Below, in pieces: positions 12,050 through 22,658 of a DNA stretch of 64,000 nucleotides. Source of the stretch: Synergistales bacterium (GTDB lineage: Bacteria > Synergistota > Synergistia > Synergistales > JAFGMB01). Every line of letters starts with the position of its first letter. Position 1 is the stretch's first letter. The position numbers and the translations under genes are program-made. Location of the stretch: positions 864,001-928,000 of the forward strand of contig OY762654.1 of the NCBI GenBank assembly GCA_963666205.1. The letters run 5' to 3'. The notes under the pieces were generated by a model, which worked only from the letters and a program-made list of their open reading frames with translations, ran no database searches and was not told where the DNA came from.

Positions 12050-13261
12050 TCAGGCCTTTTCCCCAGCCAGATAATTCGCAGCCACTCCTGCGATCAGTGC
12101 CACTCCATCAGCCAGGACATCTTCGTCGACCTGAAATTTCGGATGATGGTGAGGAGCCGTTATTCCCTTACTCTTGGCTCCTATTCCGAGGAAGAAAAAA
12201 CTCCCGGGAATCTTCTCAAGATAAAAACTGAAATCTTCCGCACCCATTGTAGGTGCTATCTCAATCACCCTGTCCTCGCCAAACATCCTCTTTGCGGCCG
12301 CTGATGCATGATCAGTAAAATCGGGATCGTTAACAGTGGGAGGGAGATTGTTGTGATAATCAAATTCAGCCTCACATCTCATAGCATTTGAAACATTCTC
12401 TACTATACGTTTCATTCTCCCTGGCAGCTCTTTTCTGAGTTCAGGGTTGAATGTCCTTGTAGTTCCAAGGAGATAAACGCTGTCCGGAATGATATTGAAG
12501 GCACTTCCTGCTTCCATTTTCCCCACAGAAACAACTATGCTTTCCAGTGGATCAGTTTCCCTGCTGACTATGCTCTGGATCATTGTTATCAGGTGACCTG
12601 CCGCGAGAGTGGGATCGATTGCCATATGGGGGACTGCTCCATGGCCGCCCTTTCCCTGAAGACGTACCTCCCACCTGTCTGCAGAGGCCATGAGAGGACC
12701 CTTGCGATAACCTATTTTACCGCTTGGGACATCCATCCAGACATGAAGACCTGTAATCGCATCAACACCATCAAGAACATTTTCTCCTACCATTGCCCTG
12801 GCGCCTGGAAAGGAACCTGACTCTTCAGATGGCTGGAAAATAAGTCTTACCTTCCATGGGAAAGAATCCCTGGTTTTTATTATCAACTCTGCAACACCAA
12901 GGAGGATAGCGATATGGGCATCATGTCCACAGGCATGCATTACTCCCTCGTTCTCTGAAGCAAAGGGGAGACCCGTCGTTTCTTGTATGGGAAGAGCATC
13001 CATGTCGGCACGCAATGCTATACATCTGCCGGGTTTATCAGAATTCAGATCCGCTACTACCCCGGTCGGCCTGCCCGCCGTGCCTATTCTGACGTTTTCG
13101 TATCCTAGATCCTCAAGGATAGCGGCAATCTTCCTGCTGGTATCCACTTCTTCCATTGAAAGCTCAGGATGGCTGTGAAAGTAACGCCTGTGACTCTTTA
13201 CCCTTTCATGAAGTTCTCCTGAAATTTTTCTGATCTCTTGAAATATCTCGCCATTATGCAT
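12050..13261 (-). CDS. M20D amidohydrolase
   Basis: RRYFHSHPELS, LRADMDALP, MHACGHDAH, FQPSEE, GGHGA.PH, AEDF, HHPKF. Confidence 0.95.
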   Translation of the reverse strand: MHNGEIFQEIRKISGELHERVKSHRRYFHSHPELSMEEVDTSRKIAAILEDLGYENVRIGTAGRPTGVVADLNSDKPGRCIALRADMDALPIQETTGLPFASENEGVMHACGHDAHIAILLGVAELIIKTRDSFPWKVRLIFQPSEESGSFPGARAMVGENVLDGVDAITGLHVWMDVPSGKIGYRKGPLMASADRWEVRLQGKGGHGAVPHMAIDPTLAAGHLITMIQSIVSRETDPLESIVVSVGKMEAGSAFNIIPDSVYLLGTTRTFNPELRKELPGRMKRIVENVSNAMRCEAEFDYHNNLPPTVNDPDFTDHASAAAKRMFGEDRVIEIAPTMGAEDFSFYLEKIPGSFFFLGIGAKSKGITAPHHHPKFQVDEDVLADGVALIAGVAANYLAGEKA

Positions 13262-13406: not shown

Positions 13407-13901
13407 TTATTTCAAACATTTTATGGAAAATTCTTTAAGTATTTCCTTGAGCGCTGGCCCACCTTTTTTGATCATACCGTCGGTCAGACTCAATACGGAA
13501 CGGGGGGGCTTGCCACAAAGCCTTTCCATTTCAGAAAAAGCGCGCTTATCTCCACTTCCTCCCATGGTACAGAAAAAAGCGACCTTCCGAGCCTTTCTAC
13601 CATGATCAGAGCAATAGGTTCTTATTGCCGGGCTGACTGTCCATGCCCATACGGGACCTCCAATTATTACCATATCAAAATTGCCTGCATCATTCATTGG
13701 GGGGGTAATATCAGTCAGCTTCTTCATGGCGGCATCTCTGCCGCCGATGGCGTATCCGCCAACTCCAGCCCTGTTCTTAAGGTCGACAATGGATTCGATC
13801 TGTGTGAAAACACCAGGTAACTCTTCAGATATCTCCTTCAACAGGGATGCTATTCTTTTACTGTTTCCCGTTCTGGAATAGTATGCAATAAGCACTTTCA
13901 T
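13407..13901 (-). CDS. Flavodoxin family protein
   Basis: YYSRTGNS FMN loop, GGPVWAW, FFCTMGGSG. Confidence 0.9.
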   Translation of the reverse strand: MKVLIAYYSRTGNSKRIASLLKEISEELPGVFTQIESIVDLKNRAGVGGYAIGGRDAAMKKLTDITPPMNDAGNFDMVIIGGPVWAWTVSPAIRTYCSDHGRKARKVAFFCTMGGSGDKRAFSEMERLCGKPPRSVLSLTDGMIKKGGPALKEILKEFSIKCLK

Positions 13902-13944: not shown

Positions 13945-14697
13945 TCACCCGAGGGGCAACTCGCTCTGGATATCTTTAAGGCGGATCTTCCGACCAACCC
14001 CGGTTTCGATGTAACCGGGAAATTGATTCCTGAAGACTTCTTTTGACAGATCGCCACTGCAATGACATGGAGCAGGATGAGAAAGCCCCTTCTTTGCAAG
14101 TGTAGATGCCAGAAGTTCTATCTCGAACCTGGAACGGGCTTCCAGATGAAGACCTCCAATTATCATCAGCAGTTTATCCGGGGAAATACATTCAACCTTT
14201 TCGAGGATACTTTTCACCCCGGGATGAGCACAACCCGTCATTACGACGAGTCCTCTATCAGTCTCTATTACCATGGCTATTTCCCTGGTCATATCTCCCG
14301 TTTCTGTAGTAACGGAAACCCCGGGCATGATCTGCAGACACGATGAAACTGGCACTAATCCTGCTCCAGAGGCTAGAATTCTCTCAAGAAATCCCCTGGC
14401 AAAGGAAGAAGGAAAGTAAACTGAAATTTCATGGTTTTGTTCCAGAAGGGCATCGATCCCACCTGTATGATCGCCATGAAAATGAGAAAGCACCACTATA
14501 TCTATATCACGAGGAGAAATGCCGAGTTTTTGCATATTGGAAAGAAGGACCTCCCCCCTTGCGCCTGTATCGAAGAGGATAGTTTCTCCTGCCCCTTCGA
14601 CGAGACAGGAAAAACCCCATCCTGCCTGAAGGTCATTCTCAGCGGTTATGTTGTCATAGAGGATAGTCAGTGATATTTCAGAGGACATTATTTTCAT
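13945..14697 (-). CDS. MBL-fold metallo-hydrolase
   Basis: LYDN, WGFSCLVE, FDTG, SHFHGDHTGG, TGCAHPG, GGLH, PCHCSG; AGGAG RBS before ATG 14697. Confidence 0.9.
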   Translation of the reverse strand: MKIMSSEISLTILYDNITAENDLQAGWGFSCLVEGAGETILFDTGARGEVLLSNMQKLGISPRDIDIVVLSHFHGDHTGGIDALLEQNHEISVYFPSSFARGFLERILASGAGLVPVSSCLQIMPGVSVTTETGDMTREIAMVIETDRGLVVMTGCAHPGVKSILEKVECISPDKLLMIIGGLHLEARSRFEIELLASTLAKKGLSHPAPCHCSGDLSKEVFRNQFPGYIETGVGRKIRLKDIQSELPLG

Positions 14698-15406
14698 TTT
14701 TCGTACACTCCTGCTCTTCATAAATGAGTTGACCTGTCCTTCTTTAAAGGAGAAATGCGGAAAATAATAATGTGAATTATCGCGATCTGTGGTCAAGCCA
14801 AGAGGTAGAAATGCATCTGGCAGAGGGATATTTGCCAGATGTGGGAATCCCCATAAGATATCTGTCCAGATCATCCGTTCCTCATTGACCGGTAATTATA
14901 ATCACCGATCTTTTTCTTATCAGTTCTTGTATTATACTCATATTTCCCTGAATGCTAAACCAGGAGTATTCTCTTCAAAGATAAACAGTGACTGTGAAAT
15001 TCTGTTACTTTCAATATTTTTCCAGGTGGCATATGATATGGCATGATAGTTTGTCAACTGGTCAGTTTCATGAATTAAGACATGATCTATCGAACCTTTA
15101 TAAATTCAGGATCCCAGAAACAGATTTGACCATACCGTGATCCCTTTATAACCCCATCGATCCACTGACCCCCCTGGCGCCTTCATAGGTCCTCTAAGAT
15201 ACGGCTTCCGGTAAGAATCTATACATAAACCATCAGGAAATAACAATGTATTTCCAGTCAAGAAAATACAAATTCCTTGAGCATTATCTCCTGAAAGTCA
15301 CTTTTCCATAGGTGCCTGTAAGGAATATCCTTGCACTAATCCTGCAGTAAGGAGTAAATTACCAATGTCTTGCCATAATCTTATAACATCAGAAAGGAGG
15401 GTTTAC

Positions 15407-15733
15407 ATGTTCTACAGAAGAGAAGACCAAAAACCGAGAATTGATCAGGATGGGTTCAGACAGACCGTTCTTGCGCGGGGTGGGAGTATGATGTTGACCG
15501 AAGGAGAGTTCAGAAAAGGAGGACTGGCACCTATCCATAGCCACCCCCACGAACAGATAGCCTATGTGTCAAGGGGGTCATTCCGTTTCAGGATAGGCGA
15601 AGAAGTAAGGGAGATCCATGAAGGAGACAGCCTGTTCGTTCCTGCCAACGTAAAACATGATTGTGAAGCACTGGAAGACGGATCCGTAATAATTGATATC
15701 TTCAGCCCGCAGAGGGAAGATTTCCTCATTTAA
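15407..15733 (+). CDS. Cupin-domain protein
   Basis: HSHPHEQ, GDSLFVPANVKH, DIFSPQREDF; AGGAGG RBS. Confidence 0.9.
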   Translation: MFYRREDQKPRIDQDGFRQTVLARGGSMMLTEGEFRKGGLAPIHSHPHEQIAYVSRGSFRFRIGEEVREIHEGDSLFVPANVKHDCEALEDGSVIIDIFSPQREDFLI

Positions 15734-15887: not shown

Positions 15888-15915
15888 TTGCATTTCTCCC
15901 GGAAAGGACTATAAT
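15888..15915 (+). promoter_or_regulatory. Sigma70-type promoter of the ATP-grasp operon
   Basis: TTGCAT ... TATAAT with ~16-nt spacer. Confidence 0.6.
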
Positions 15916-15954
15916 TCGCTCAAAATCAGTTAACGGATTGAAACCAAATTTTCT

Positions 15955-16092
15955 ATGGAAAGACACCATAAAATGGTGAAGAAAAGAAGGTTCAGTCATA
16001 TTATGTCAAGCCCAGATCCTCGTTTTCCTCCCGGAAAAAAGGGTGGGTTTTTTTTATGGGCTCAAGTGCTGGTTAGATCATCAGAGATCTGA
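15955..16092 (+). CDS. Putative leader (attenuator/arrest) peptide, 45 aa: MERHHKMVKKRRFSHIMSSPDPRFPPGKKGGFFLWAQVLVRSSEI
   Basis: Open frame between promoter and first structural gene, running through the terminator hairpin; alternative start ATG 15973; weak RBS. Confidence 0.45.
   Translation: MERHHKMVKKRRFSHIMSSPDPRFPPGKKGGFFLWAQVLVRSSEI
16008..16055 (+). terminator. Leader (attenuator) terminator
   Basis: AAGCCCA.ATCCT..TTTTCC-tccc-GGAAAA..GGGTGGGTTT then TTTTT; lies upstream of the first structural gene. Confidence 0.6.
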
Positions 16093-16134
16093 TGTGAGAC
16101 AGTAAATATTTCCTCAAAAAGGAGAGGACAGAAA

Positions 16135-17190
16135 ATGTGGGAAACAAAAGAGGGAAAAGAAGAGGTTCCGCTAAGGGTAAGTAAAGTAGGAATAGCATAT
16201 AATCTCCGCCGACAGGCTGAGGTGGGTCAACCTGATGACCTTTATGAGGAGTATGACTGCATGGATACAGTACGCTCCATATCAGGTGAAATAGAACGCT
16301 ACGGTTTCGAAACATGCATGCTGGAACAGGATGAAAACTTTCTGGAAAAGATTTTCCAGAACAAGCCCGGTTTCGTCTTCAATATAGCTGAAGGAGTAGG
16401 TGGAACAAGGGGAAGGGAAGCCCAGATCCCTTCTATCCTGGAAAGCATTGGAATACCCTACTCCGGATCTGATGGAGTTTCACTTTCAATAACCCTGGAC
16501 AAGTATCTGACCCACAAGATCCTCTCTTCCTCCAACATCAGGGTTCCCGCTTTTTACCACTTTGCCGCAGAAGAAGATTTTGAGAATTCGGAAGAGATCT
16601 TTGACTATCATGAATTATGCATTGTCAAACCTCGATGGGAAGGCTCCTCCAAGGGAGTGTTCAAAGATTCCATAGCTCAAACACATGAAGAAATGAAGGA
16701 TAAAGTCAGAAGAATATGGAAGATGTACAAAGAACCGGCCATTGTGGAAGAATATCTGCCCGGAGATGAGATTACCGTCGGAATAATGGGTAACGGGACC
16801 CAGAAGGTCCTCGGAATGATGCGGATAGTTCCTTTACACAAGGAAGAAGGTCACTTTCTATATTCACTTCAACATAAACGGGAATGGGAGGAACTGATAA
16901 AGTACCAGGGACCCGAAACAATTCCCGACCATGTCCGAAAGGCTCTTTCAGATGCAGCTAAAAAGACTTTCAAGGTTATGGATCTCAGGGATGTAGCCCG
17001 TATAGATTTCCGGCTGGACACTAACGGTATCCCGAGAGTAATAGACGTCAATCCCCTGCCAGGTCTTTCTCCCAGGTATAGCGACCTGATAATTCTCCAC
17101 AGGCTTAGCGGTGGAGAATACAAGGAAATAATCAGGGGGATCCTCAAGGAATCCTTTCACAGAAACAACCTGGAATGGTCGTGGAATTGA
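16135..17190 (+). CDS. ATP-grasp ligase, D-Ala-D-Ala-ligase-like (paralogue 1)
   Basis: FNIAEG, GIPYSGSD, LDK, VKP..EGSSKG, VEEYLPG.E, ARIDFR, DVNPLPG; lacks the canonical Ddl N-terminal GG.S.E. Confidence 0.85.
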   Translation: MWETKEGKEEVPLRVSKVGIAYNLRRQAEVGQPDDLYEEYDCMDTVRSISGEIERYGFETCMLEQDENFLEKIFQNKPGFVFNIAEGVGGTRGREAQIPSILESIGIPYSGSDGVSLSITLDKYLTHKILSSSNIRVPAFYHFAAEEDFENSEEIFDYHELCIVKPRWEGSSKGVFKDSIAQTHEEMKDKVRRIWKMYKEPAIVEEYLPGDEITVGIMGNGTQKVLGMMRIVPLHKEEGHFLYSLQHKREWEELIKYQGPETIPDHVRKALSDAAKKTFKVMDLRDVARIDFRLDTNGIPRVIDVNPLPGLSPRYSDLIILHRLSGGEYKEIIRGILKESFHRNNLEWSWN

Positions 17191-18275
17191 TGAAAGGAAA
17201 CCCTGGCATGAAAGGTCCCCTTCTCGTAATAGCCAGTGAAGAGGAAACCGAAAGGGAGGACATGCTCGATATCCTGCGATGCCGGAACGCAGTTATGGAA
17301 GGACTTTCATCTGCTGGATATGACGTTACGGGGCTGAACATTACACCTGCCGATTTTCAGGACCTGCCGTCCATGATCAGAAGGATCAGGGGGATCAGAC
17401 CATCCTGCATATTCAACCTTTTTGAAGGGTTCAGCGGTAAGCCAGTCCTGGAAAGGGAATTCTGCAGAATACTGGAAAACCTGGATATCCCCTTCACCGG
17501 CAATACTTCGGCGACCCTTGGTAAGTGCCTTAACAAGGATGAAACAAAGAAGCATCTTAAAAAGGCAGGAATAACTGTTCCTGGTGGATACATCGTAAGA
17601 AGTCATCTACAGGTCGTCCCCTCAAGGATTCGTTATCCCCTCTTCATCAAACCCTGCTGTGAAGATGGGAGTGTCGGGATAGATCATCGATCAATAATAG
17701 TGGGACCAGAAGACCTGGCCGCAAGACTTGAGGAAAAACTTTTGCGGCATCCCTCTGGAATCGTTGTGGAAGAATTCATCCCCGGAAGGGAATTTAACGT
17801 TGCATTCCTTGGAAATGGGCCCTATGAGATGCAATCAGTGTCGGTTTTGGATTATGCCAGGTATGAAGGCGTTCAACCCTTTCTGGGATACGATTCCAAG
17901 TGGGACCCCGCTTCTCCCGATTACAGTATGACCTTTACCGAGTTGGACGAAGGGAAAGACAGGGAACTGAAAACCAGTATAGGTCGGATAGCTTCAAAAG
18001 CTGGCCATGTACTGGGATGCAGAAGCTACTTCAGGGTTGACCTGCGTGAACGGGATGGGGAAATGTACGTTCTGGATGTAAACCCGAACCCTGACATTAA
18101 TCTGGACAGCGGCTTCGTCAGGCAGAGTCGCACCCGGGGTTACTCATACCCGCAACTTCTTGAGCATATAATCAATCTAGCACTGGAAGAAAAAATGGAG
18201 AAGAACAATTATGAAATACAGCGTACAGGATTATATAAAGATAGCAGAATCGACAAAAGCCTTTACCTCTCCTGA
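17175..18275 (+). CDS. ATP-grasp ligase, D-Ala-D-Ala-ligase-like (paralogue 2)
   Basis: FNLFEG, IPFTGN, LNK, IKPCCEDGSVGI, VEEFIPGREF, RVDLR, DVNPNPD; overlaps both neighbours. Confidence 0.85.
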   Translation: MVVELMKGNPGMKGPLLVIASEEETEREDMLDILRCRNAVMEGLSSAGYDVTGLNITPADFQDLPSMIRRIRGIRPSCIFNLFEGFSGKPVLEREFCRILENLDIPFTGNTSATLGKCLNKDETKKHLKKAGITVPGGYIVRSHLQVVPSRIRYPLFIKPCCEDGSVGIDHRSIIVGPEDLAARLEEKLLRHPSGIVVEEFIPGREFNVAFLGNGPYEMQSVSVLDYARYEGVQPFLGYDSKWDPASPDYSMTFTELDEGKDRELKTSIGRIASKAGHVLGCRSYFRVDLRERDGEMYVLDVNPNPDINLDSGFVRQSRTRGYSYPQLLEHIINLALEEKMEKNNYEIQRTGLYKDSRIDKSLYLS

Positions 18276-18675
18276 GATAAAAACTCTGCGGGAAGTCCTG
18301 GAAGAATGGGAAGCAAACCCCGGAAAGGACTACCTTCTTCTTCACGAAGAAGATCAGGAAGGATTGATGGGCTTTCTGATATACGGATCTACGCCTATGA
18401 CTGAAAGCGGTTTCGACCTTTACTGGATAGCGGTAAAAAAAACAGGACAGAGGAAAGGTATGGGCAGGAAGCTTGTCCTGGAAATGGAAAACCGTATTCT
18501 CGAAGAAAAGGGACGAGGTGTTATAAGGATCGAGACTTCCGGTAGGGAACAGTATAAGGGGCAGCGACAATTCTACCTTTCACTGGGATACTCCGAATGT
18601 GGACGTATCAGGAATTTCTACCATCAGGGTGACGATCTCGTAACATTTTCAAAATCCATCCAGGGAATGAATTAA
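18211..18675 (+). CDS. GNAT N-acetyltransferase
   Basis: FDLYWIAV, acetyl-CoA motif QRKGMG, IETS, FY..LGY. Confidence 0.9.
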   Translation: MKYSVQDYIKIAESTKAFTSPEIKTLREVLEEWEANPGKDYLLLHEEDQEGLMGFLIYGSTPMTESGFDLYWIAVKKTGQRKGMGRKLVLEMENRILEEKGRGVIRIETSGREQYKGQRQFYLSLGYSECGRIRNFYHQGDDLVTFSKSIQGMN

Positions 18676-18786
18676 GGAGGGGAATCGAATCTCCTTCTTT
18701 GATCATTTCTCTGTAACTTGCAGGATTACATTCATTACAGGAAAAGGATGTAAGAAAAGGTTCCTTAACAATATGGAGGAAATTCG

Positions 18787-20529
18787 ATGTTCAGGATAAG
18801 ACGGGTACTTGATGACATTATTCCTGTCAACAGGGACGCGATCATACAGGTTCAACAGATGACAAGGGCTCAGTTTCCCGATATTCGGGAAACTGAGGTG
18901 GAAAAGATCCCTGATATGCTCAGAAATTCCCTTAAGTACGGATTTCAGACCATTCTTCTTATCGCCGAGGGAGAGGCAAGAAAGATCATGGGTTTTGCTC
19001 TTCTTCTCTATGATCCCCTTCTTCGTTATGCCTACCTTGATTTTATAGCGGCTGGACTGCCCCTCACGGGCAGAGGGCTTGGAAGCATCCTCTATGAAAG
19101 GATCCGAAAGGAATCACTGGAACTTGGTGCAAAGGGACTCTTTTTTGAGTGTCTTCCTGACGACCCTCTTTTGTCCAGAAATGAGGATACCCGAAAACAG
19201 AATGAATCCCGTCTTCGTTTTTACGAAAGGTATGGAGCCAGGCCGATCATTAACACACTTTACGAAACTCCCCTTACTGCTGAAGGCGATAATCCGCCAT
19301 ACCTTGTATTTGACCCTCTGGGCCAGGAAACCCCCTTGAGAAAGAACAGGGCTCGCCTGATCGTTCGTTCCATTCTCGAGAAGAAATACCCGGACCTGTG
19401 CACCCCTGAGTATACAGCAATGGTAGTATCCTCCTTCAAGGATGACCCGGTAAGGATCCGTCCACCCAGATATATAAAGGAACTTGCAAAAACTAATGTT
19501 CCAAGGGAAATACCGGAGGATGAAAAAATAGTCCTTGTGATCAATTCCGGTCATGAGATCCATCACGTGAGGGAAAGAGGATACGTGGAATCTCCTGTGA
19601 GGATAAGTGCAATTTTAAAGGAGATCGAAAACACAGGCCTTTTTATGACCAGAAAGGCCAGGCACTTTGGAAGGTCCTGGGTAACAAGTGTTCATGACAA
19701 AGATTTCATAAACTACCTTGAAAAGATCTGCCTCGGGGTCGATGGAGACAGATCTGTTTATCCCTATGTATTCCCCATAAGGAACAATGCCCGGCCGCCA
19801 AAGGAACTTTCTGTTCGTGCAGGTTACTACTGCATAGACACCTTTACCCCCTTGAACAGAAATGCCTATCTGGCAGCAAGAAATGCCGTAGACTGCACCC
19901 TGACCTGTGCCCAGTCTCTATTGAGTGGGACCCACCTCGCCTATTCCCTCGTCAGACCCCCGGGACACCATGCAGAAAGGAGAAGCTTTGGAGGATTCTG
20001 CTATCTTAACAGCACTGCCATAGCAGCCCAGTATCTTTCGGGAAAAGGACGAGTAGTCATCCTGGACATGGACTACCATCATGGCAACGGGCAGCAGAAC
20101 ATATTTTATAAGAGAAAGGATGTATTCACCATATCGATACATGGTCATCCATCCTTTGCATATCCCTACTTCAGCGGATTTAACGACGAAAAAGGACTTT
20201 TTGAAGGAGAAGGCTTTAATCTCAACATTCCTCTTGGAGAACAGGTCCACGGTGAAATATACAGAGAAGCCCTTAAAAAAGCACTGAAAAGAGTAAAAGA
20301 ATATGATCCTGATTTTCTGATCATAGCCCTTGGGCTGGACATATCGAGAAAAGACCCTACTGGAACGTGGGATCTTTTAGCAAAGGATTTTTTCCTTAAC
20401 GGAAAACTGGTAGGAAAATTGAATCGGCCAACCCTGGTAGTCCAGGAAGGCGGCTATAACACAAGGGTTCTCGGTCAGAACGCAAGAAATTTTTTCACAG
20501 GCCTCTGGCAGGGAGCATACAGGGATTAG
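18787..20529 (+). CDS. Fusion of GNAT-like domain and histone-deacetylase/acetylpolyamine amidohydrolase domain
   Basis: N-terminal YLDFIAA..TGRGLGSILY..RFYERYG; C-terminal RPPGHHA, GGFCYLN, DMDYHHGNG, ALGLD, QEGGY. Confidence 0.9.
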   Translation: MFRIRRVLDDIIPVNRDAIIQVQQMTRAQFPDIRETEVEKIPDMLRNSLKYGFQTILLIAEGEARKIMGFALLLYDPLLRYAYLDFIAAGLPLTGRGLGSILYERIRKESLELGAKGLFFECLPDDPLLSRNEDTRKQNESRLRFYERYGARPIINTLYETPLTAEGDNPPYLVFDPLGQETPLRKNRARLIVRSILEKKYPDLCTPEYTAMVVSSFKDDPVRIRPPRYIKELAKTNVPREIPEDEKIVLVINSGHEIHHVRERGYVESPVRISAILKEIENTGLFMTRKARHFGRSWVTSVHDKDFINYLEKICLGVDGDRSVYPYVFPIRNNARPPKELSVRAGYYCIDTFTPLNRNAYLAARNAVDCTLTCAQSLLSGTHLAYSLVRPPGHHAERRSFGGFCYLNSTAIAAQYLSGKGRVVILDMDYHHGNGQQNIFYKRKDVFTISIHGHPSFAYPYFSGFNDEKGLFEGEGFNLNIPLGEQVHGEIYREALKKALKRVKEYDPDFLIIALGLDISRKDPTGTWDLLAKDFFLNGKLVGKLNRPTLVVQEGGYNTRVLGQNARNFFTGLWQGAYRD

Positions 20530-20559
20530 TTGAACCCGAAAACTCAGCACTATCACCTT

Positions 20560-20852
20560 TTACTACAGCTGATAGTCGAGTTCCTGGCAGCATATGCCGA
20601 TAACGGGACATGATCATGGGGATGGTGCCGCTGTATGTGGAGGTGGGGAGATAGTGGTTTTATGATGATCCTGCCCTTATTGCCGGTGATAATACTGTTC
20701 TATTTTTTTATGAAGGCCCGCTCCGGCAAGGAGAACGAAGTACCCAGACCTATACACCTCTGGAGATACTTAAGAAACGTTACGCACAGGGCGAAATAAC
20801 AAAAGAGCAATTCGAAGAGATGAAAAAGGAACTGCAAGGCATGGAACAATAG
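20560..20852 (+). pseudogene. Degraded SHOCT-domain small membrane protein
   Basis: Frame A ...FLAAYADNGT*SWGWCRCMWRWGDSGFMMILPLLPVIILFYFFMKAR; shifted frame B TPLEILKKRYAQGEITKEQFEEMKKELQGMEQ* (SHOCT pattern); one TGA (20611) and one frameshift. Confidence 0.7.
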
Positions 20853-20883
20853 ATCCATTCGGGCAGTATTATTTTATATTTCG

Positions 20884-20923
20884 AAAACGGGGAATTCGTC
20901 TTTGCTGGTGAACTCCCCGTTTT
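20884..20923. terminator. Bidirectional hairpin
   Basis: AAAACGGGGA.TTC...GAACTCCCCGTTTT. Confidence 0.65.
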
Positions 20924-20931
20924 GGTTCAAC

Positions 20932-20967
20932 AAAAAACATCCCCGGGCTTGGACCCCCAGGGATGTT
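20932..20967 (-). terminator. Intrinsic terminator directly 3' of the orphan GEMM aptamer
   Basis: Minus strand AACATCCCTGGG-loop-CCCGGGGATGTT TTTT. Confidence 0.7.
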
Positions 20968-20969
20968 AT

Positions 20970-21121
20970 TCTTTAAAGGCAGCCCGGCCGGCCTGACTGT
21001 CGGTTTTACATTCAACCCAAAGAAACCTTACTCTTGCAAGATTCCTTTGAATATAAAATCCGTTTTAGTCCCGTGGCTTTGCGCCACCGTCTTTTGACGG
21101 CTTCGCTCTTATCTTTAAAGA
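20970..21121 (-). ncRNA. GEMM-I (c-di-GMP-I class) riboswitch aptamer variant, no downstream ORF
   Basis: Minus strand: TCTTTAAAG(P1)..A-GCGAAGCCGTC-AAAA-GACGGTGGCGCAAAGCCACGGGACTAA...[long hairpin]...GGCCGGGCTGC-CTTTAAAGA(P1). Confidence 0.75.
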
Positions 21122-21364: not shown

Positions 21365-21733
21365 ATGAATGACGAAGAAATGACTCTTGGACTCTTTATC
21401 AAGTTTCTGGCAAAGTACTCCAGCATTCTAGCCGTTTTATTTATCGTTATGATCTCCTTCAGCAAGGGACACATTCCTCAAAGCCCTTCAATGGATGATC
21501 TTGGGCTTTTTCTCTGTTTTCCTGTAGGTGTATCCATAGGCCTGCTTTTAGCTCTTAAATATGAAGGAATAGGCGGCCTTGTAACCATTACTTCCATCGT
21601 GATCTTTTATGCCTTTAATTCATATCTCTGGGGTAATTACCCCGATGAATCCTACTACCTGATCCTCTCCTTCCCATCTGTCCTCTCTCTTCTCTCATGC
21701 CTGTTGAACGACCCGGATTTCAGCAACAGGTAA
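21365..21733 (+). CDS. Hypothetical membrane protein (about 4 TM)
   Basis: Four hydrophobic segments; no recognised motif. Confidence 0.65.
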   Translation: MNDEEMTLGLFIKFLAKYSSILAVLFIVMISFSKGHIPQSPSMDDLGLFLCFPVGVSIGLLLALKYEGIGGLVTITSIVIFYAFNSYLWGNYPDESYYLILSFPSVLSLLSCLLNDPDFSNR

Positions 21734-21775: not shown

Positions 21776-22204
21776 TCAACCCTGGAAAAATGCAAGGGTA
21801 AATTTGCGGCAGTAATCCATGAAGATTCCGTAGGGCCTTCCGGCGACAGCAAAGATAAGGGTCATCATTATAGTGGAAATAATGATCTGGTTAACAGAAG
21901 CATGGGCCAGTAACAGAACTAATACATAAAGGGGCAGTTGAAAAGAAATAAATGCCGCAGTATCTCCCAGGGCTGTCTGGATAAATGAGTCCACCTTCAG
22001 ATCAAACCTTGTGAAAAGCATATCCCTGTAACAGCCATACAGTCTTCCTGTGAGAAGATTTGTAGGTACAGCGGCAGCCCTTGCAACCAGTGACTGCATA
22101 ACTGTCATTCCGGCCGCAAAGATCTCGATCATCATACACATGGCAGTTGAAAAAAGGATCATGGCAACTGTATCTGCTAACAGCATTTTCCATGATCTAT
22201 TCAT
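21776..22204 (-). CDS. alaE: L-alanine exporter AlaE-like
   Basis: ADT.AM..F..GMT..QSL..R....P.N....R.YG.YRD, DT.AF.SFQ.PLY; AGGTG RBS before ATG 22204. Confidence 0.8.
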   Translation of the reverse strand: MNRSWKMLLADTVAMILFSTAMCMMIEIFAAGMTVMQSLVARAAAVPTNLLTGRLYGCYRDMLFTRFDLKVDSFIQTALGDTAAFISFQLPLYVLVLLLAHASVNQIIISTIMMTLIFAVAGRPYGIFMDYCRKFTLAFFQG

Positions 22205-22658
22205 ATACTTATCACCTGCTTCCCATGACGTATAAGAGAACACAACAACCGATCCGGAACAGCAAAACACATCTATGCCGATATGATATCCCTTGATACA
22301 GATGAAGATGGGATAGATCGGGACTTAATCAATTACTATGACCAGAAGGAAGAGAAGTAAGGAAATGATCAGTTCCGATAATATCATGTAATTACAGGGC
22401 TCTCCACATCTATCCTATCGATGAATGCAAATCTGATCGGTCCTGAAGGCCAGTATATGACCTGCTATCTCCTGAATGAACCACTGGAAGATCCCGTAAA
22501 GGAATCCTGAAAATACATTACGAAAATATTCATTACCCGGGCAGAATATGTGATCGAAGAGGATAAGAATATAAATATGTATTTCTCCCTGTTTTATGCT
22601 AAATTAAATGCAACTTCAGTGTAATGGTAAAATCCTTGAAGTGGAGGCCTGTCTTTAC

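Follow-up and report, generated by a model that had tools for sequence, protein, structure and literature searches.

The AblA/AblB pathway of methanogens and some bacteria starts from lysine 2,3-aminomutase (LAM) and ends in an N-acetylated beta-lysine derivative, N-epsilon-acetyl-beta-lysine. The subject of this report is a four-gene cassette that may start and end in the same way. It lies at positions 16135 to 20529 of the window, by which we mean the whole 64,000-nucleotide stretch analysed (contig OY762654.1, positions 864,001 to 928,000) from a Synergistales bacterium. It encodes two ATP-grasp ligases of the D-alanine–D-alanine ligase (Ddl) fold, LIG1 and LIG2, a small GNAT N-acetyltransferase, and FUS, a fusion of a GNAT domain to an ApaH-type deacetylase. 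The LAM encoded elsewhere in the same genome passes the AblA model. The cassette lacks AblB, however, and its small GNAT shows no family-level relationship to AblB; conversely, the AblA/AblB pathway has no counterpart to the two ligases or to the ApaH-type deacetylase.

Other described systems share parts of this logic. ATP-grasp ligation yields small cytoplasmic solutes in the synthesis of N-acetylglutaminylglutamine amide (NAGGN; Ngg, which combines GNAT and ATP-grasp, together with AsnO) and in the reaction of carnosine synthase. These resemble the cassette in amino acid ligation and N-acetylation, and carnosine synthase ligates a beta-amino acid, but their ATP-grasp enzymes are of the RimK or carnosine type and they use neither an aminomutase nor a deacetylase. 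Mycothiol and bacillithiol synthesis also unite a deacetylase, an ATP-dependent amide ligase and a GNAT in one pathway, yet the families are unrelated (LmbE, CysRS-like) and the cassette has no sugar or thiol genes. The negamycin system, in the part of the preprint available to us, has KamA but no ATP-grasp enzyme. In Bacillus, AcuA and AcuC form a pair of GNAT and histone deacetylase (HDAC)-fold proteins that regulates enzymes; the cassette deacetylase is not AcuC-type, and no acyl-CoA synthetase neighbour recurs in the surveyed loci.

All four genes lie on the plus strand, as the first-pass annotation had placed them; they are confirmed as real and co-oriented and are predicted to be active. 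LIG1 (16135-17190, 351 amino acids) and LIG2 (17175-18275, 366 amino acids) match the Pfam family Dala_Dala_lig_C (4.6e-29 and 1.5e-22, respectively) and are distinct from one another. The small GNAT (18211-18675, 154 amino acids) matches Acetyltransf_7 (4.3e-08) and Acetyltransf_1 (2.9e-06), and FUS (18787-20529, 580 amino acids) matches Hist_deacetyl (4.2e-73) and, weakly, Acetyltransf_1. With the longest open reading frames (ORFs), LIG1 and LIG2 overlap by 16 nucleotides and LIG2 and the small GNAT by 65, in line with the reported overlap of the first three genes. The LIG1/LIG2 part of that statement hinges on the choice of start codon, since in LIG2 the alignment with relatives begins only near residue 12. 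Between the small GNAT and FUS lie 111 nucleotides.

Ddl is the closest family to the ligases in both sequence and fold, and this is an argument for a cell-wall function, that is, a spare pair of D-Ala-D-Ala or D-Ala-D-X ligases for peptidoglycan. The AlphaFold2 model of LIG1 has a predicted local distance difference test score (pLDDT) of 93.2 and template modelling (TM) scores of 0.76/0.86 to E. coli DdlB (1IOW), and its top structural matches are all Ddl or Van ligases. The ligases thus share with the Ddl/VanA family the three-domain fold and the ATP, Mg and catalytic residues. An alignment of 16 sequences, including E. coli DdlB and the Ddl of the same genome, shows K97, K144, E180, E187, K215, R255, D257 and N272 to be invariant (DdlB numbering); the LIG2 group likewise keeps K, K, E, E, K-W, R, D and N as its invariants. 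The resemblance is incomplete. The NCBIfam Ddl model gives 141.9 bits for LIG1 and 119 bits for LIG2 against a cut-off of 243, and the profile alignment starts only at positions 27 and 24, respectively. We take E15 in the GGxSxE motif, S150, Y216 and S281/L282 of DdlB to be the D-Ala-binding residues. The glycine-rich N-terminal motif is absent from both ligases, in agreement with what had been noticed at first pass. Relative to DdlB, both carry E for H63; at Y216, LIG1 has R, E or W and LIG2 has W; LIG1 has D for L282; and LIG2 lacks S150. An acidic pair, E39 and D41, is invariant in LIG1 and sits where Ddl holds the amino group of its first substrate. The first-pass annotation had also drawn attention to DxN in place of the ExN of Ddl. 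Both window ligases do read DVNP, but the substitution is no family trait: D for E is limited to Synergistales-type rows and one further locus (L078), while the remaining rows of the LIG1 and LIG2 alignments (A1 and A2) have ExN.

Genome content separates the ligases further from the cell wall. A genuine, separate Ddl (305.9 bits) is encoded in this genome some 86 kb upstream of the cassette, and the cassette ligases are unlinked to mur genes. Neither murC nor Ddl was found above cut-off in any of five cluster-bearing Dehalococcoidales genomes (best murC 34.7 bits against 335), where the best Ddl-family matches are LIG1 and LIG2 themselves. By gene content, then, the ligases are demonstrably independent of murein synthesis. 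A cell-wall role for LIG1 and LIG2 is very unlikely because the scores fall below the cut-off, the specificity residues are replaced, the genome carries a true Ddl and the cassette persists in genomes where murC and Ddl both stay under cut-off. The tight linkage to KamA described below argues the same way. The one further point in its favour is that the nearest solved structure to the small GNAT, 2R7H, was titled 'putative D-alanine N-acetyltransferase' by its depositors; with this included, we regard a function in peptidoglycan synthesis as scarcely credible. The earlier judgement that these are unlikely to be cell-wall ligases therefore holds. LIG1 and LIG2 form separate orthologous groups, and LIG2 is always downstream of LIG1 where the two are adjacent and co-oriented. 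A prediction of the LIG1+LIG2 complex scored 0.00 in two runs and is uninformative on the heterodimer suggested at first pass, an idea that is so far unsupported. We note that the own Ddl adjoins a gene with a weak match to VanX/DdpX-like D-Ala-D-Ala dipeptidases (69 bits against a cut-off of 176); the two genes are at L185 1544-2503 and 2686-3468, both on the minus strand, corresponding to about 794,043-795,967 of G000:C1.

The gene neighbourhoods connect the ligases to lysine 2,3-aminomutase, their core partner, to which LIG1 is bound most closely of all the cassette genes. Contig scans seeded with FUS (502 relatives) and with LIG1 (595 relatives) were each reduced to 80 loci, of which 39 and 36, respectively, have full flanks (for the FUS set, at least 4 kb on both sides). 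Of the 80 LIG1-seeded loci, 71 also carry a KamA-family gene (33 of the 36 with full flanks), so the association of paired Ddl-like ligases and a GNAT with KamA cited at first pass is borne out. LIG2 is present in 59 of these 80 loci, the GNAT in 41 and FUS in 11. Among the 39 full-flank loci seeded with FUS, 23 contain KamA, LIG1, LIG2 and GNAT, one contains the set without LIG1 and 15 contain none of these genes. FUS may be last, first or between LIG2 and the GNAT. Since the same genes recur in 24 of 39 loci in three gene orders, the arrangement is not due to chance. Relatives were recorded in Desulfobacterota, Bacteroidota, Planctomycetota, Omnitrophota, Bacillota, Myxococcota and Bathyarchaeia.

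Simpler and more elaborate forms of the cluster exist. LIG1 and LAM alone make up a minimal form in Bacillota, including Caproicibacter fermentans (L170), and LIG1-LIG1'-LAM is found in Planctomycetales and Omnitrophota. Among the 120 longer relatives of LIG1 that were listed, four are single-polypeptide KamA-LIG1 fusions, the LIG1 part of which is 50-52% identical to that of the window. Variants in Dehalococcoidia place a NAAT/MarC-family transporter between GNAT and FUS and add a divergent MarR-type regulator, and in some Desulfobacterota the locus encloses a sigma-54 two-component system. Genes for peptidases, carrier proteins or polyamine synthesis do not recur in the surveyed loci, and no family of small ORFs (20-79 amino acids) spans more than five of the 160. 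Myxococcota, including Myxococcus xanthus, have a protein of 700-740 amino acids with two ATP-grasp modules in tandem, both of them LIG1-like rather than one LIG1 and one LIG2.

The aminomutase partners are of the lysine type. We compared 94 KamA sequences (cluster-linked, the own-genome LAM and the four fused) with 2A5H, the solved Clostridium LAM. All 94 keep CxxxCxxC, the pyridoxal phosphate lysine and the Asp pair aligned with D293 and D330, residues which bind the epsilon-ammonium group of lysine and are replaced in glutamate 2,3-aminomutase. The cluster-linked KamA proteins of other phyla fall below the AblA cut-off (471 against 525) with the D293/D330 equivalents kept. Sequence thus ties the ligases to a lysine-type aminomutase. 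The first-pass annotation had seen no KamA at this locus and an HDAC-fold enzyme in its stead. It is correct that none is adjacent here, where a cupin gene stands upstream of the cassette, but the full cluster commonly holds both enzymes, and the 2.95-Mb genome has a single KamA-family gene (1,038,484-1,039,758) about 158 kb from the cassette, which exceeds the AblA equivalog cut-off (601.3 against 525.4). This gene (L082 9482-10759, minus strand) is divergent from one for a 526-amino-acid Amidohydro_3 protein (L082 10992-12572, plus strand; Pfam 9.5e-97). Ten further loci of the same order all carry LIG1-LIG2-GNAT, with FUS in none of the fetched stretches; a LAM 60-65% identical to that of the window genome comes straight after this trio in two of the loci, and a third has one no more than 8 kb away.

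Co-occurrence across genomes agrees with the neighbourhoods. In 41 genomes of the same order, with a LIG1 orthologue defined by a best E of at most 1e-57, 21 have LIG1, 22 have LAM, 18 have both and 16 have neither. Of the three with LIG1 and no LAM, one is a genome that is 86% complete, one has an internal stop in LIG1 and the third is a fragment. In an independent sample of 61 Dehalococcoidales genomes, 28 have LIG1, 28 have KamA and 27 have both; the single exception in each direction is on a short contig. FUS is rarer. It is present in five of the 41 same-order genomes, all with LIG1, and in six of the 61 Dehalococcoidales, five with LIG1; in five of five genomes with FUS apart from the ligases, a KamA-LIG1-LIG2 cluster is found elsewhere. 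Presence is therefore nested, FUS within LIG1 within LAM, and FUS is an accessory almost exclusive to ligase-bearing genomes. AblB (TIGR03827) is over cut-off in none of the 41 same-order genomes, and the beta-lysine 5,6-aminomutase family (KamD) is found in two, both lacking LAM. For this reason the cassette stands out as the sole consumer of beta-lysine that can be recognised in these 41 genomes, and judged by gene content it looks like the main one in both sampled groups. In the closest complete relative (G012, LIG1 63% identical), LIG2 is broken by a Mutator/IS256-family transposase gene (L095 9302-10534, minus strand; Pfam 1.8e-129), and LIG1 has in-frame stops in G020, G081, G094 and G104; the cassette thus appears to be degenerating in certain lineages.

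The small GNAT has a QRKGMG acetyl-CoA loop and aligns over its full length with 2R7H (Dde_3044, 1.9e-19), a structural-genomics entry. A literature search for Dde_3042 to Dde_3047 returned nothing relevant beyond one unrelated transcriptome paper. Neither the small GNAT nor FUS matches AblB in NCBIfam. Longer fused forms of the small GNAT were looked for and none turned up, which is weak evidence, and profile comparison revealed no specific kinship between it and the N-terminal domain of FUS. The latter (18787-19482, plus strand) is a GNAT fold with a helical extension. Its Pfam match is marginal (Acetyltransf_1, residues 29-125, 21.7 bits against a cut-off of 20.7), but AlphaFold2 models residues 1-250 with a mean pLDDT of 89.3, Foldseek matches the fold to Gcn5 and AAC(6') proteins at E values down to 2e-8, and G97 and G99 are invariant in 24 FUS sequences. 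Those 24 sequences have a mean column identity of 70%, unusually high for a spread from Synergistota to Bathyarchaeia. One Rikenellaceae locus (L009) has FUS split into two ORFs.

The C-terminal domain of FUS (19585-20502, plus strand) is a zinc deacetylase of the HDAC fold (Hist_deacetyl, residues 267-572, 246.7 bits against a cut-off of 27.9). It aligns end to end and nearly without gaps with the ApaH structures 9GKZ (PsApaH, 2.9e-69), 6PHR (A. baumannii, 5.1e-66) and 3Q9B (M. ramosa, 7.8e-60), and far more weakly with HDAH (1ZZ0, 5.2e-31) and the AcuC-type 5LI3 (2.9e-29). The zinc and catalytic residues of ApaH are all present, and H394 and H395 (the HH dyad), D429, H431, D518 and Y557 (of GGY) are invariant in the 24 sequences, which come from many phyla. 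From these alignments the domain is specifically ApaH-like, a sharper assignment than the original 'HDAC-fold enzyme' and one that fits the polyamine-type product then proposed. The accessible part of Graf et al. 2024 (PMC11532494) places the bacterial polyamine deacetylases in 'cluster 4' and describes an N-terminal L1 hairpin and L2 loop that make the head-to-head dimer of ApaH. FUS differs in exactly this region: the alignment begins at ApaH residue 38, and the first 37 or so residues, with the L1 hairpin, are replaced by a 260-residue GNAT domain and linker. A term search of the main text of that paper gave no mention of a GNAT fusion. In ApaH, the L1 hairpin and the dimer shape the polyamine tunnel.

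Such a close match to the characterised polyamine deacetylase PsApaH (PMC11532494) raises the question of whether FUS simply acetylates and deacetylates ordinary polyamines, or whether the ligases join an amino acid onto a polyamine. The 15 of 39 full-flank loci in which FUS lies apart from the ligases would suit such a role. FUS is nearly confined to genomes with the KamA-LIG cluster, however, and the KamA-LIG1 fusions tie the ligase to beta-lysine. No polyamine-synthesis genes recur beside either FUS or LIG1 seeds, so the recurrent polyamine-gene neighbours expected at first pass were not seen. We consider ordinary polyamine metabolism unlikely. We also considered the modification of a protein, either by ligases that attach beta-lysine in the manner of RimK or EpmA, or by a FUS acting as an AcuA/AcuC-type switch on the ligases or LAM. 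GNAT and HDAC-fold pairs do regulate Bacillus enzymes, and an EF-G-like gene lies downstream of the cluster in one Planctomycetales locus. PsApaH itself is reported to retain some peptide deacetylase activity (PMC11532494). Against this, the deacetylase is far nearer ApaH than the AcuC type, and no conserved target protein or small ORF occurs in the 160 loci. The KamA partners are long and of the LAM type, with scores under the EpmB model, and the patchiness within a genus is unlike the modification of a translation factor. Protein modification is thus improbable.

The reading we prefer places the four genes in a widespread beta-lysine pathway, for which they would supply the ligation and acetyl-transfer steps, the product being a small N-acetylated beta-lysine amide or peptide whose acetylation state is set by FUS. 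We put the chance of this being right at about one half. The unlinked LAM would make beta-lysine. LIG1 and LIG2 would each form one amide bond through an acyl-phosphate, giving a small beta-lysine amide or pseudo-peptide. LIG1 probably works directly on the aminomutase product, given the KamA-LIG1 fusions and the minimal LIG1-LAM modules, and LIG2 would add a second amide bond. The small GNAT could then cap by acetylation an amino group that is still free. FUS may both acetylate and deacetylate the aminoalkyl end of the product or of beta-lysine itself, an end that resembles N-acetylputrescine, and would thereby set the balance between free and acetylated pools. As for its role, we favour an intracellular solute of anaerobes, either an osmolyte or a polyamine-like cation. 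The substrates, the order of the steps, the product and its role are what we infer from the gene families and their context. The 'ligate, acetylate, deacetylate' logic for a small molecule, put forward at first pass, survives as the best reading.

Several observations weigh against this assignment. The model is built from sequence and context, and product, substrate and activities alike are predictions. An acetylase and a deacetylase fused together and acting on one substrate would amount to a futile cycle unless regulated. Here the small GNAT and FUS are set apart by the 111-nucleotide gap, which contains a hairpin, and no RNA contig bridges 18675-18787. Four same-order genomes with LAM lack the ligases, one of them (G001) from the same genus; LAM therefore also serves something else. 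One Dehalococcoidales genome has FUS with neither LIG1 nor KamA, FUS there being at the start of a contig. The Myxococcota tandem ligase (loci L187-L266) has no KamA within 7 kb, although KamA-family genes are found elsewhere in five of five genomes. Finally, the hints of an osmolyte are weak: TreT (L107) and a mechanosensitive-channel domain (L181), each in a single locus and not counted as evidence, and the origin of some sequencing runs in marine sediment.

The same evidence from KamA and the ligases could also describe a bioactive beta-lysine peptide, an antibiotic or a signal, that is kept inert by GNAT acetylation, exported and activated by the ApaH domain, by analogy with streptothricin-type self-resistance. 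Nourseothricin and glycylthricin acetyltransferases do appear among the Foldseek matches to the FUS N-terminal domain, at ranks 20-39 with partial alignments, and the distribution of the cluster is patchy even inside a genus. These GNAT matches are generic, however, and no dedicated exporter or immunity gene recurs in the surveyed loci. Carriage by 28 of 61 small-genome Dehalococcoidales and 21 of 41 members of the same order is also more typical of core physiology, and we think an exported, self-protected peptide rather unlikely. Returning to the cytoplasmic beta-lysine derivative, a bolder form of that proposal is an undescribed class of metabolite, such as an N-acetylated beta-lysyl peptide or an oligo-beta-lysine 'peptidic polyamine', that would serve uncultured anaerobes as a major solute or polycation, with FUS a new bifunctional acetylation switch buffering the free pool. 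We advance this tentatively, at a little under an even chance.

The 5′ leader had been thought to encode a control peptide, a suggestion we no longer support. A 45-codon ORF at 15955-16092, upstream of LIG1, has no relative in the 160 loci. The regions ahead of the cassette in the window and in five same-order relatives do not align with each other, and Rfam gave no match for this region here or for its counterparts in 16 related loci. A hairpin followed by a run of eight T residues (16010-16055, plus strand), some 80 nucleotides upstream of LIG1, is a candidate attenuator or terminator, but the fold of the leader is not significant (z = -1.54). The region also holds a perfect TATAAT (15910-15915), its -35 element being weak. 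The same 45-codon ORF might be regarded as the precursor of a ribosomally synthesised and post-translationally modified peptide of the graspetide kind, since a content of two ATP-grasp enzymes and a GNAT resembles that of the microviridin system, with MdnB, MdnC and MdnD. That the ORF has no relatives, that no small-ORF family spans more than five loci, that the ligases have full three-domain Ddl folds and that their partner is a free-lysine aminomutase together make a graspetide-like system extremely improbable.

The hairpin between the small GNAT and FUS (18675-18698, plus strand) directly follows the GNAT stop codon, with nine pairs and a U-poor tail; its fold is likewise not significant (z = -1.68). 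FUS may be partly uncoupled from the upstream genes in transcription, to judge from this arrangement. Metatranscriptome contigs of at least 95% identity from four runs in two studies cover parts of LIG2, the small GNAT, FUS and the downstream spacer, and none in those runs covers 15891-17072. This evidence consists of contigs, for which DNA carry-over is possible and gaps carry no proof, so that expression is only suggested. Near-identical DNA was found in marine-sediment and activated-sludge runs; the RNA contigs are from marine sediment.

The flanking DNA holds further features. A cyclic di-GMP (c-di-GMP)-I riboswitch (20975-21117, minus strand; 53.2 bits against a gathering score of 35) faces the 3′ end of FUS. 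It has a terminator-like hairpin of its own (20936-20967, minus strand) and no plausible ORF downstream on that strand, and contigs from RNA libraries span 20475-21095. The riboswitch may be an orphan, or may drive c-di-GMP-dependent antisense transcription into the cassette. A gene for a membrane-anchored SHOCT-domain protein (20635-20849, plus strand) is split by a frameshift: the SHOCT part (Pfam 2.5e-11) lacks a start codon and the N-terminal transmembrane part is in a different frame, which points to either a pseudogene or an assembly error. Further downstream are a DUF7670 membrane protein (21365-21733, plus strand) and an AlaE-family L-alanine exporter (21776-22270, minus strand); the DUF7670 gene and others beyond are common to a second Synergistales locus (L008), the AlaE gene is not. 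Upstream lie genes for an M20 amidohydrolase (12050-13261, minus strand), a flavodoxin (13407-13901, minus strand), a metallo-beta-lactamase (MBL)-fold hydrolase (13945-14874, minus strand) and the cupin (15365-15733, plus strand). With the CpsA model the M20 protein reaches 435 bits (cut-off 500), and with that of DoeB2, which deacetylates N-acetyl-diaminobutyrate, 309 bits.

The enzyme families seen here and the logic of ligating and acetylating are already known. What appears to be new is the combination of genes, the proposed dependence on beta-lysine and the GNAT-ApaH fusion. A search of the full-text literature found no description of the cassette within that collection, and database names for its proteins are generic, the ESM Atlas offering only 'Ddl family' for the ligases; the system thus stands, as first proposed, as both conserved and uncharacterised. 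LAM genes are common in anaerobes and, to our knowledge, their purpose is unexplained beyond lysine fermentation, N-acetyl-beta-lysine, antibiotics and the modification of EF-P. The identity of the product would give a function to hundreds of proteins annotated as 'D-alanine--D-alanine ligase family' and 'histone deacetylase family', names that mislead in organisms without murein. It would define the first substrate for a GNAT-ApaH fusion and add a solute, or a compound akin to polyamines, to those known from microbes of sediments and digesters. If the proposal is true, this metabolite spans more than ten phyla, including the murein-less Dehalococcoidia and the Bathyarchaeia.

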